From: a virus
Lineage: Duplodnaviria > Caudoviricetes
Reading direction: 5' to 3' (one strand)
DNA length: 64,000 nt
IMG/VR virus record: IMGVR_UViG_3300025723_000017
Location: 90,060-154,059 of that record
This document shows, one piece after another, positions 7,104-21,604 of the stretch. The notes under the pieces were generated by a model. The model did not search any database and had not been told where the DNA came from. It worked only from the letters and a program-made list of their open reading frames with translations. Every line of letters begins with the position of its first letter. Position 1 is the stretch's first letter. The position numbers and the translations under genes are program-made.

Positions 7104-7308
7104 TGAGGATTCCTGTTTGTTTACTGTATAGCTATAATAACTGACAATGATTTAATTGTCAATACCACAATGTTCTAATAGTGCCTGCGACAATTCGTCA
7201 CTTAACGTAGGGTTGACGTTGGATTTGATATGTGCTGCCCACACCCTGTACCACCCCTCTCTTACGCGGTCCAGGACCGCTTGGCCCTCAGGGGTTTCAA
7301 TCCAGTCA

Positions 7309-7584
7309 TCATTGATGCACGTCATCATCTACTCCAGTTGTTAATGTACTGTGATTATAACACCTGACTATTAAATTATCAACTGACACAACCGCTGTGT
7401 CAAAGCCCTGTACATACCCCTCCTGGTGACTCAGGGTCATGTGGTGATGAATCCAGGCTTGGAATCCTGCTAGGTCTACCTCCTGAGTTTTTACCCACTC
7501 GTACATCTGGACTTCGGTGATGTCTGCCATCGCATAGGTTTTATTTTTACTTGCTATCTGGTTAGATGAACGAATGTATCGCAT
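7309..7584 (-). CDS. Hypothetical early protein
   Basis: AGGAG RBS, duplicated as a 39-bp tandem repeat at about 7560-7636. Confidence 0.55.
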   Translation of the reverse strand: MRYIRSSNQIASKNKTYAMADITEVQMYEWVKTQEVDLAGFQAWIHHHMTLSHQEGYVQGFDTAVVSVDNLIVRCYNHSTLTTGVDDDVHQ

Positions 7585-7682
7585 AATAACTCCTTTTCTG
7601 GTTAGATGAACGAATGTATCGCATAATAACTCCTTTGAGTGGTAGTCTACTGCTATTATAAACAGAGACGTCGTAATTGTCA

Positions 7683-7834
7683 AATGGTAGAGGGATTCGA
7701 ACCCTCACAGACGAGTCGGTCGTGTTCGCTCGTCCCAACAGTTTTTGCCATGAACACGAGGGATGGGGTTACCCGTCATCTCCTATCCGTATCGGCTCGT
7801 CCACGTCGGCGGATACCATTTTCGCCATACCATA
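7683..7834 (-). ncRNA. tRNA-like RNA with a large insertion replacing the anticodon/variable region
   Basis: Acceptor ATGGTA/TACCAT, D-arm-like GCGAAAATGGTATCCGC, T arm GAGGG-TTCGAAT-CCCTC; internal stems GACGAG/CTCGTC and TCGTGTTC/GAACACGA. Confidence 0.7.
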
Positions 7835-7925
7835 TTGAAATACACTTACTGGATAAACTTGCTACGACTGGGCGTAGTCACCTCTAGTTGGCTTTATCAC
7901 ATCCACTAATAAATGTACTTCAATA

Positions 7926-8041
7926 TGGTGTCTAACGTGGGATTCGAACCCACAATGTGCAACGGTGTCGATGACGTTACCATCATCGGGGGGTTTAAGC
8001 ATCCCACCGCCGTCTGCGACTCTCCAGATCGCCGGATAGAC
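7926..8041 (-). ncRNA. tRNA-like RNA with an expanded, branched anticodon region and encoded CCA
   Basis: Acceptor GTCTATC/GTTAGAC + A + CCA, D arm GCGA-TCTGGAGAG-TCGC, T arm GTGGG-TTCGAAT-CCCAC; about 116 nt. Confidence 0.7.
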
Positions 8042-8415
8042 AAGGTATTAAAATACATTACGCTGGTCTACGTCCAGTTGCGCTTTTGACTTCCATCGCA
8101 TATAAATGTATTTCAATATAACTAGATTATACTAGATGTTGACGTAGTTGTCAACCCGCTTCAGTAATGAAACCCCTAAGCTTCTGCTCCGGCACCGACT
8201 GTAACAACTCCGCCAGGGCAGTCAAGTCTTCATTTCTAATGTCAACCTGTATCTGCAATAACACCATGTCAATTAGGCTGCTGTCCATCGTCTACTCCCG
8301 TTTGTTTACTGTAACTAAATTATACTGAGAATTCCTCAGTCAGTCAAGCGTCGGCAATATTACTCTGCCGACAGATCAACTATGCCGGCAGAGGATACTG
8401 GGGATTACAATGTTG

Positions 8416-10234: not shown

Positions 10235-10604
10235 TCAAAATGGGGCCGAGGCCCCATTTTTCAGTAGGTATTTGACTGCACAGGGTCAAATTCTGATGTC
10301 AAATTCTATCGGCCAATTCTACAGGCCAATTCCCACACTTGAATCCGCATCATTCCTGCCGCTTGAGAATCTTCCCATCTAAGGGTTAAGTATTAGTCCT
10401 GAGATTTAAGTCGTGTATATGAATGATATGCCCTCATCAGACTGGTGGTGTCAATACAGAATTAGTTCTTCCCGCCAGCTGACTAATCTCTCATCATGAA
10501 TCAAGGTTAGCCTGGGGCTAACCTTGATGGTGTCGTCTAGGATTTGAATTCTACAGACCAATTCTAACCCGCAAATTTTAGAATTGACGTCTGCAATATC
10601 AAAT

Positions 10605-16644: not shown

Positions 16645-16927
16645 AGCTGGCTCCTGTTTGTTTACTCAACTGCTATTATAACCAAAATTGAATCAATTGT
16701 CAAGCCGTTTGTTTGACGTGATGCCTGAGGTCAGGATCCTGGCGAAGTATTTTTCTCCAGTCCCATTTAGCCTGTGTGTATGCTTCGCGGCTCAGTGTAA
16801 ATGAGGGGTTCTTTGCCGTAGCCCAGTTAACGAAATTTATACGTTCAATATGACTTCTAAATAGCACGGTCATCTCCTGTTGTTTACTGTATAAACATTA
16901 TAACGGCAATAGTGTTGATTGTCAATA

Positions 16928-17025
16928 TGGAATCCATTGTGAGTAGGCCTCGAACCTACATGTGGTGTTTATTTCCACCGGCTCCTATCCGAGCCTATGT
17001 CTACCAATTCCATCATCACGGATTC
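16928..17025 (-). tRNA. Aberrant tRNA-Leu-like RNA
   Basis: D loop GGAATTGGTAGAC, long variable arm GGTG/CACC, T arm GTAGG-TTCGAGG-CCTAC, 3' CCA; 6-nt anticodon loop GGATAG and bulged acceptor; own promoter 17084-17113. Confidence 0.6.
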
Positions 17026-17194
17026 TTGGGGTCATGACTTCCCAATATGGACAGGGTAATTACTCCTGTTTTCGCCATATTTATATTATACTGAGGTTTG
17101 TCTTGTATGTCAAGTCACTTACTTCATCATCGTCTCCGTTAGAGGCAGTACCGCCGGTGGGGTTCTCCCCCACCTTTATGAATGGTCTAGAAGA

Positions 17195-21324: not shown

Positions 21325-21388
21325 AGTCGTAACCAGTCGTAACCAGTCGTAACCAGTCGTAACCAGTCGTAACCAGTCGTAACCAGTC
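21325..21388. repeat. 10-bp tandem repeat
   Basis: (AGTCGTAACC)x6. Confidence 0.95.
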
Positions 21389-21604
21389 CTAGTAGTACCG
21401 GCGACAGCAGCAATTTCAAACTGAACCTGTTCGGTGACTGAATGTTTTGACACTTTTTTACCCCACCCACTGACTCAATAAAGATTACTGAATTAATTTA
21501 CACACACAGTATTGACTATTTGTATAGAGTCTTTTATACTGTATTTTTATCACTTTTATCACTTAAATTAATCGAATTACTTAAATTACTTAAAAGGCCG
21601 CTGT

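Follow-up and report, generated by a model that had tools for sequence, protein, structure and literature searches.

A putative protein-free early operon of an uncultured giant phage in which long hairpins alternate with tRNA-shaped RNAs lacking an anticodon loop

Results

We describe a putative non-coding operon in a 64-kb window of phage DNA (64,000 nucleotides, positions 90,060 to 154,059 of the IMG/VR virus record IMGVR_UViG_3300025723_000017). The window is the 3' end of a 154-kb virus contig with an estimated completeness of about 45%. Behind a consensus sigma-70 promoter on the minus strand, two stalk-closed hairpins (H1 and H2) alternate with two tRNA-shaped RNAs (TL1 and TL2), and the promoter of a further cassette follows. 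All coordinates refer to the window, and the hairpins were delimited by folding:

8126-8154, minus strand: consensus sigma-70 promoter (TTGACA, 17-nt spacer, TATAAT; 12 of 12 matches), -35 box at 8154-8149 and -10 box at 8131-8126, predicted start near 8119
8046-8118, minus strand: H1, stalk-closed hairpin with a stalk of 13-14 bp and an interior of about 43 nt
7926-8041, minus strand: TL1, tRNA-shaped RNA of 116 nt with an encoded CCA
7831-7928, minus strand: H2, stalk-closed hairpin with a stem of 21 + 6 bp and an interior of about 45 nt
about 7682-7822, minus strand: TL2, tRNA-shaped RNA of about 140 nt, CCA not encoded
7655-7683, minus strand: consensus promoter of the next cassette (12 of 12 matches), its -35 box overlapping the last bases of TL2

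The predicted transcript start roughly coincides with the first base of H1, and the -35 box contains the stop codon of an upstream 45-aa open reading frame (ORF; 8288-8151). A preliminary description made from the sequence had noted a promoter without a ribosome-binding site, and indeed neither a Shine-Dalgarno sequence nor a start codon to go with it was found downstream of the promoter. Six small ORFs overlap the operon; none of them matched PHROGs, and Pfam gave a single faint match below threshold (14 bits versus a cut-off of 27). There is no credible ORF in the operon. Folds and ORF searches thus agree on the non-coding order of hairpin, tRNA-like RNA, hairpin and tRNA-like RNA that had been proposed. 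On the minus strand no intrinsic terminator was listed between 8125 and 7600. The two long inverted repeats, likewise noted before, fold at -17 kcal/mol (H1, z = -2.7) and -36.4 kcal/mol (H2, z = -6.0), and within the 154-kb contig their motif is restricted to this locus.

TL1 and TL2 both contain the top half of a canonical tRNA, i.e. a T arm (5-bp stem, 7-nt loop) on which an acceptor stem of 7 bp stacks, the T arm being directly contiguous with the 3' acceptor strand. The 11-nt T-loop motif occurs in two exact copies in the contig, which are those of the TL1 and TL2 T arms. In TL1, the acceptor strands (8041-8035 and 7936-7930) form six of seven pairs with one U.U mismatch; the T arm (7953-7937) is perfect and the RNA terminates in ACCA, with the discriminator at 7929 and the CCA at 7928-7926. 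At the anticodon-arm site, TL1 is predicted to carry an 8-bp stem bearing two hairpins, one of them capped by GUAA. TL2 folds in the order of a 7-8 bp acceptor, P2 (7813-7800), P3, a joiner, P4 and the T arm (7706-7690), with all seven acceptor pairs formed and again a perfect T arm. Herein, P2 is a 5-bp stem with a 4-nt loop, P3 an interrupted hairpin of about 50 nt ending in a loop of 3-4 nt, the joiner 11 nt of single strand, and P4 a hairpin at the position of the variable arm. Multi-stem modules thus replace the anticodon arm, as had been described, in the form of the branched domain in TL1 and of P3/P4 in TL2. The earlier estimate of about 150 nt for TL2 was somewhat too long.

Right after the 5' acceptor strand, both RNAs have the same 14-nt hairpin of 5 bp and a 4-nt loop; between the two copies, one G-C pair is swapped to C-G and one base of the loop is changed. 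A GG that could dock on the T loop is absent from this hairpin loop. Of the arms that were said to be kept, the acceptor and the perfect T arm were therefore recovered, but not a canonical D arm and hence not an intact tRNA elbow. A 7-nt loop at anticodon distance was found in neither RNA. Devoid of an anticodon loop and of a normal D loop, TL1 and TL2 are therefore incapable of decoding. TL1 shares its T arm, base for base, with tRNA-Leu genes of related phages; beyond this, the search for a parent isotype of TL1 and TL2 gave no clear result.

Copies of the operon RNAs were found in metagenomes, where a scan with a loose pattern returned 21 stretches, three of them true copies (L166, L176 and L183). 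TL2 is identical in L166 and in L176, a strain variant that carries both RNAs. Across 446 nt, the operon differs from L176 at two positions, compared with about 4% divergence in the coding flank (7150-7600), and both differences are structurally neutral: the TL1 discriminator, at which alone TL1 differs, changes from A to G, and an A-U pair of H1 becomes G.U at 8111. In L183, a diverged TL2 lies behind its own stalk in another gene neighbourhood. Between this copy and ours there are 12 substitutions, of which 10 make up five compensatory pairs, one converts G-C to G.U and one is unpaired. The covariation among homologues that the preliminary description had proposed to look for is hence present in TL2, in 5 of 43 pairs (P4 and the T stem have two each, P3 has one), and none was seen for TL1. 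By this comparison, TL2 is selected for its secondary structure.

The stalk hairpins belong to a larger family. At the foot of H2, the CCA of TL1 (7928-7926) pairs with a UGG (7833-7831) to form the first three base pairs, so that H2 shares these bases with TL1. The same arm sequence occurs in the tRNA arrays of the closest relatives of the contig, where it separates tRNA-Lys from tRNA-Arg (G001) or follows a promoter (G002). In eleven related arrays (L147-L157), the stalks begin 1-2 bases into a tRNA's CCA and reach to right before the next tRNA. An IMG/VR scan for a T loop followed by 13 nt, CCA and a stalk arm matched at least 120 contigs. We fetched 80 of these loci (L185-L264) with 91 matches, 83 of which have a complementary 3' arm. 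In 81 distinct arm pairs, the helix comprises 18 bp: positions 1-17 are paired in at least 93% of copies and position 18 in 84%, with the exception of position 8, where 46 of the 81 have an A.C mismatch (e.g. L147:10693-10791) and the others G-C or A-U. Covariation was seen at positions 7, 14, 16 and 18, pairing is random beyond position 18, and interior lengths range from 11 to 180 nt. H2 pairs at 18 of 18 consensus positions, including two G.U pairs, the CCA:UGG foot and G-C at position 8. H1 matches the consensus at positions 3-18 and has no CCA; since it begins at the promoter, it has no upstream partner. In the L183 copy of H2, the stalk is kept with one compensatory and one G.U-to-G-C change, and the interior is different. 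H1 and H2 therefore both represent a conserved RNA stalk whose contents can be exchanged.

The tRNA directly before the stalk is most often Lys-UUU (36), Glu-UUC (14) or Gln-UUG (14), together 64 of 83. These isotypes account for 13% of all tRNAs in the same loci (naive binomial p of 1e-39, shared ancestry uncorrected). In bacteria, a thiolated, modified wobble U is a feature of three tRNAs, and these are Lys-UUU, Glu-UUC and Gln-UUG.

The inverted repeats might also act at the DNA level, as operators or other protein-binding sites, or as recombination sites for cassette exchange that in form resemble integron attC hairpins. Conserved arms around varying interiors and the conserved mismatch at stalk position 8 would suit such elements, as would the construction of the region from exchangeable cassettes and the resemblance of the stalk-arm motif to the -35 context that follows TL2 and a third tRNA-shaped RNA, TL3. 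However, the stalk ends match tRNA CCA ends and the 5' ends of the next tRNA to the base, the arms vary as RNA does, by interchange of A-U, G.U and G-C, and the stalks lie within transcription units that run along the tRNA strand. Both roles are compatible with each other; an explanation by DNA elements we regard as improbable. We also observed that, on the minus strand, TL2 (7678-7689) and TL3 (16920-16930) abut the -35 box of the following promoter. At the site where a stalk arm begins behind the CCA in relatives, an almost identical string is read as TTGACA in this phage, a hint that recombination may exchange promoter modules and stalk arms.

In the contig, no recurring target complementary to the operon was found. 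A 10-bp unit in about seven tandem copies (21330-21395, minus strand) has nine bases complementary to the small hairpin inside H2, covering its loop and 3' stem, which is probably due to chance (about 0.03, judged after the fact).

With regard to known RNA classes, ARAGORN found no tRNA or tmRNA gene in the window or the contig, with introns allowed or not, and no Rfam family matched at its gathering score. The operon RNAs hence score neither as ordinary tRNAs nor as a known Rfam family, as the preliminary description had expected. Below threshold, TL1 reached 17.6 bits with the tRNA model RF00005 (cut-off 29) and TL2 20.5 bits with tRNA-Sec (cut-off 47). We reject a canonical tRNA on these RF00005 and ARAGORN scores and on the lack of a 5-bp stem with a 7-nt anticodon loop. 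A tmRNA, standard or permuted, is rejected as well, given that ARAGORN -m and Rfam were negative, a tag reading frame is lacking and TL1 has C3-G70 instead of G3:U70.

TL1 and TL2, or one of them, could nevertheless be unusual working decoders, namely a tRNA with a removable intron-like insert or a small tmRNA-like RNA. The sub-threshold matches to tRNA and tRNA-Sec and the encoded CCA of TL1 would agree with this, and both a permuted tmRNA and a group I intron within a tRNA occur in relatives. Against it stand the missing anticodon stem-loop, the missing G3:U70 pair and tag frame, and a discriminator that varies between near-identical strains. Furthermore, at about 45-90 nt the inserts fall short of group I introns and tmRNA, as was argued before, and they matched no intron or tmRNA model. 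We thus consider working decoders very improbable.

In relative G002, the Rfam model for permuted (two-piece) tmRNA does match (RF04321, 66 bits, L116:8933-9193, plus strand). In G001, a lone T arm whose 3' end resembles that of a tmRNA (L104:11294-11310, minus strand) is probably the counterpart. No permuted tmRNA was found in our contig.

YrlA RNAs, a kind of bacterial Y RNA, are tRNA mimics, some of them phage-encoded (PMC4201824), and TL1 and TL2 might mimic them and tether a Ro60-like protein. We rejected a YrlA or Y RNA identity since its models gave zero matches up to E = 10 across 7400-8400. The topology differs, too, and no TROVE/Ro60 gene was matched in the contig, which represents about 45% of the genome. 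The probability that we would assign to a Y RNA mimic is accordingly very small. RNase III, for which we also searched the contig, was likewise without a match.

The locus had no blastn match among 50,697 phage records, and IMG/VR pattern scans with the shared 5-bp hairpin plus T loop and with the TL2 joiner gave 0 matches each. Compared with 30 related contigs by blastn, the operon matched ordinary tRNA T arms and nothing else, and nhmmer, run with TL1, TL2, H1 and H2 over about 1 Mb of related tRNA regions, returned no significant match. No homologue was detected by a TL2 covariance model in 50 related contigs.

A third tRNA-shaped RNA is encoded elsewhere in the window:

16928-17113, minus strand: TL3 cassette, with its own perfect promoter (17113-17085) and the RNA at 17084-16928

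TL3 has a Leu-type D arm, an acceptor of 6 + 4 bp with a 3-nt bulge, an imperfect T arm (16959-16943) and a CCA at 16930-16928. Its analogue of the anticodon arm has a 6-nt loop without a conserved triplet. Three related phages have a homologue (nhmmer E-values of 7e-16 and 1e-11 in two of them), placed between two stalks just past two tRNA-Lys genes. Compensatory changes affect 9 of 33 predicted pairs, including pairs of the unusual 6 + 4 bp acceptor, and the 3-nt bulge is conserved. TL3 is thus conserved and covarying, and non-decoding tRNA look-alikes are therefore recurrent and selected in this phage group. Such look-alikes are rare, as in 0.9 Mb we counted about 15 strict candidates versus 1,513 ordinary tRNAs.

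The contig encodes T4-type replication genes and a head protease, and it is related to uncultured giant phages whose size reaches 364 kb. Between 5 and 20 kb, the window consists of a series of small minus-strand cassettes, each preceded by a consensus sigma-70 promoter; between 4 and 12 kb, 41 promoter-like sites were found versus 15 expected, eight of them perfect. By tblastx synteny, this early region is not conserved with the two closest relatives (82% and 81% clamp-loader identity), and no orthologue of the operon locus was found in either. A search for related loci with a neighbouring 194-aa gene led to one contig that bears ordinary tRNAs only. In our 154-kb contig, ARAGORN found no ordinary tRNA.

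The operon RNAs might be decaying tRNA genes, relics of an array that cassettes shuffled into the early region and that no longer function. The hypervariable, mosaic nature of this region, the tRNA-Leu T arm of TL1 and the lack of an ordinary tRNA in the contig could be read in this way. Decay would hardly produce compensatory substitutions, however, or near-identity in a strain with diverged flanks, and it is equally at odds with a dedicated perfect promoter, perfect T arms and conserved relatives of TL3. Taken together, we judge it improbable, slightly more so than an origin as DNA elements.

Some further features of the region and of the relatives were noted. Behind TL2, a tandem duplication of 39-40 nt (7565-7642, minus strand) spans the ribosome-binding site and the first codons of the next gene; its first copy gives rise to a 20-codon ORF closed by a stop, and the strain variant L176 does not have the duplication. 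In G002, about 430 nt free of ORFs and without an Rfam match lie between a promoter-driven stalk and tRNA-Cys (L116:12160-12590, plus strand) and may be a larger structured RNA. Several relatives have tRNA-Ile(UAU) genes of 90-95 nt (L147:6846-6935, L104:6079-6173 and others) for which ARAGORN places the anticodon oddly, and relatives also carry tRNA-sized genes missed by ARAGORN, e.g. L147:7040-7110 and 10310-10395.

Discussion

Our analyses lead us to propose that the locus is a protein-free early operon that encodes two long RNA hairpins and two tRNA-shaped, non-decoding RNAs, a reading to which we assign a probability of roughly 0.55. RNase P and the CCA-adding enzyme require no more of their substrates than a T arm with a 7-bp acceptor stacked on it. 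The primary transcript could thus be cut by the tRNA-maturation enzymes of the host. RNase P cleavage at the 5' ends of TL1 and TL2 would give H1 and H2 precise 3' ends, and 3' trimming that halts at the CCA of TL1 would set the 5' side of H2. For TL2, 3' cutting and perhaps CCA addition would be needed; its 3' end must come from processing, because a terminator is absent and its last bases overlap the next -35 box. Possibly, the stalks are also sites for a nuclease specific for double strands. The tRNA frame would in this way be a natural scaffold that provides P3/P4 and the branched domain with defined ends and resistance to nucleases.

Such processing could be an end in itself. The RNAs would then be pure punctuation, i.e. 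cis-acting processing or stability signals that part neighbouring transcripts, like the tRNAs in some bacterial mRNA operons, and the excised RNAs would have no job of their own. The absence of a terminator between TL2 and the next gene is in agreement with this, as are the 3' ends of TL2 and TL3 that run into the next promoter and the stalks of relatives that occupy exactly the gap between two tRNAs. On the other hand, punctuation seems unneeded where each cassette already has its own consensus promoter, and the operon opens with a hairpin at +1, where there is no upstream mRNA to process. Moreover, P3 and P4 are dispensable for processing, yet they are what the compensatory changes preserve. 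We regard mere punctuation as possible, albeit rather unlikely.

In the reading of the operon that we prefer, the mature RNAs would probably act through binding of a host or phage protein, with readers of the acceptor/T-arm half of tRNA as the most logical partners. The conservation of P3 and P4 suggests that these are working parts, presumably for protein binding. Since the acceptor/T-arm half is kept and the anticodon loop lost, a reader of the top half or of the CCA end fits better than an anticodon nuclease. The preliminary description had offered decoys for anticodon nucleases or for tRNA-sensing defence and tRNA-scaffolded functional RNAs as possible roles. Among these, a tRNA-scaffolded functional RNA fits best, as far as the predicted folds can tell, and the anticodon-nuclease decoy fits least because the anticodon loop is absent; titration of a tRNA-end-directed enzyme or defence toxin would be more plausible. 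One may go further and speculate that the tRNA-shaped RNAs are top-half decoys made at the start of infection, which soak up a host factor that acts on the acceptor or CCA end of tRNAs, e.g. a defence toxin that modifies or blocks 3' ends. The stalk would mask the CCA end and time its release, and stalk and tRNA-like RNA together would be a counter-defence module made of RNA only. If this was true, the CCA-stalk masking device would in relatives serve mainly the Lys-UUU, Glu-UUC and Gln-UUG tRNAs. We consider this scenario doubtful and put it forward as a long shot.

Several points weigh against the proposed operon of tRNA-shaped RNAs. A trans-acting function of the RNAs is pure inference. The covariation is thin, as it comes from one diverged copy of TL2, and TL1 has none. 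TL1 and TL2 appear confined to this lineage, with three metagenomic fragments and no copy among the 50 related contigs or in IMG/VR. The folding z of the whole RNA is unremarkable for TL1 and TL2 (-1.3), and TL1 combines its acceptor mismatch with two nearly isoenergetic predicted folds, of which one with a canonical 4-bp D arm and a GG loop has -39.7 versus -40.5 kcal/mol. With neither a CCA nor a terminator, the 3' end of TL2 is undefined. Finally, the TL2 covariance model scores TL1 (13 bits) no better than ordinary tRNAs (up to 21 bits), and because this score lies within the range of ordinary tRNAs, we did not count the match as paralogy.

Comparison with known systems

In engineered tRNA scaffolds, an RNA of interest is swapped in for the anticodon arm for recombinant RNA expression. 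TL1 and TL2 resemble them in that an acceptor/T-arm frame would serve processing and stability and the cargo sits at the anticodon-arm site; these scaffolds differ in being man-made and in retaining a normal D arm. Among natural RNAs, YrlA RNAs are similar to the operon RNAs as non-decoding RNAs with a tRNA-like module. For a bacterial Y RNA whose tRNA-like module has a 7-bp acceptor, cleavage by M1 RNA (RNase P) and addition of CCA have been shown (PMC4201824). In contrast to YrlA, the operon RNAs match no Y RNA model and end at the acceptor stem, with no Ro-binding stem.

The stalks in the tRNA operons of related giant phages share with H2 the 18-bp consensus, the CCA:UGG foot and variable interiors. 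Their upstream partner is usually a genuine tRNA, whereas it is the non-decoding TL1 here. In the part of the literature that we covered, we found no published description of CCA-stalks or of anticodon-less tRNA-like RNAs in giant phages. The bias of the stalks toward Lys, Glu and Gln tRNAs with UUN anticodons provides a lead toward tRNA maturation or tRNA-directed defence.

The closest counterparts of TL1 and TL2 are small stable RNAs of phages T5 and T4. In the T5 record NC_005859, RNA1 (144 nt) and RNA2 (125 nt) are annotated as "tRNA-like stable RNA with unknown functions" and adjoin RNAI, RNAIII and RNAIV (103-107 nt) in the orders P13a, RNA2, RNAIV and RNA1, RNAI, RNAIII, tRNA-His. According to our folds, RNA1 has the frame of a Leu-type tRNA, including the D arm, and an enlarged anticodon arm; terminal stems of 12 and 8 bp close RNAIII and RNAIV, and RNAI has an acceptor-like stem that ends in CCA. 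T5 RNA1 and RNA2 thus resemble the operon RNAs in their tRNA frame with an acceptor and a canonical T arm, in the expanded anticodon region and in size, and a sigma-70-type phage promoter is likewise followed by a tRNA-like and then a stem-closed RNA. However, the T5 RNAs lie inside a tRNA array, their terminal stems have neither the CCA:UGG coupling nor a shared stalk sequence, and TL1 and TL2 have a 5-bp stem with a tetraloop instead of a D arm. No sequence homology of TL1 or TL2 to the T5 RNAs was detected; T5 RNA1 is the best non-self match of the TL2 model (21.2 bits, with T4 rnaC at 14.1), and ordinary tRNAs score almost alike.

In the T4 record NC_000866, the tRNA cluster ends with two small stable RNAs, rnaC (species 1, 139 nt) and rnaD (species 2, 119 nt), whose sizes are comparable to those of TL2 and TL1. 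In the fold of rnaC, the ends are paired, two long hairpins occupy the sites of the D arm and the anticodon arm, and the T arm is perfect. Its 7-nt T loop is the same as in the operon RNAs; beyond the T loop, we found no sequence similarity of the T4 RNAs to the operon. RNA C and RNA D differ in standing in tandem with no stalk hairpins between them, and RNA D has no T arm. Kinship with the T4 and T5 RNAs is therefore one of design, as far as sequence comparison goes, and not demonstrated descent.

The T4 and T5 RNAs have been known for about fifty years without a function being assigned to them, and the same design now appears in an unrelated, uncultured giant phage. A dedicated early promoter, covariation, and a family of CCA-pairing stalks in at least 120 phage contigs argue for a recurrent, selected strategy rather than a curiosity of T-even phages and T5. 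With its 450 nt behind a sigma-70 promoter, the operon is a compact unit that could be expressed and dissected. The operon RNAs have the features common to the T4 and T5 tRNA-like stable RNAs, i.e. a phage gene on the strand of the tRNA or early genes, a terminal acceptor-like stem, a canonical T arm, an expanded or replaced anticodon region and a length of about 115-145 nt. By this analogy, we regard the operon as a sequence family that is new within a known yet unexplained kind, that of T4 RNA C and T5 RNA1 and RNA2. Unusual here are the short hairpin in place of the D arm, the location in early-promoter cassettes and not in a tRNA array, and the coupling to the CCA-stalk family.

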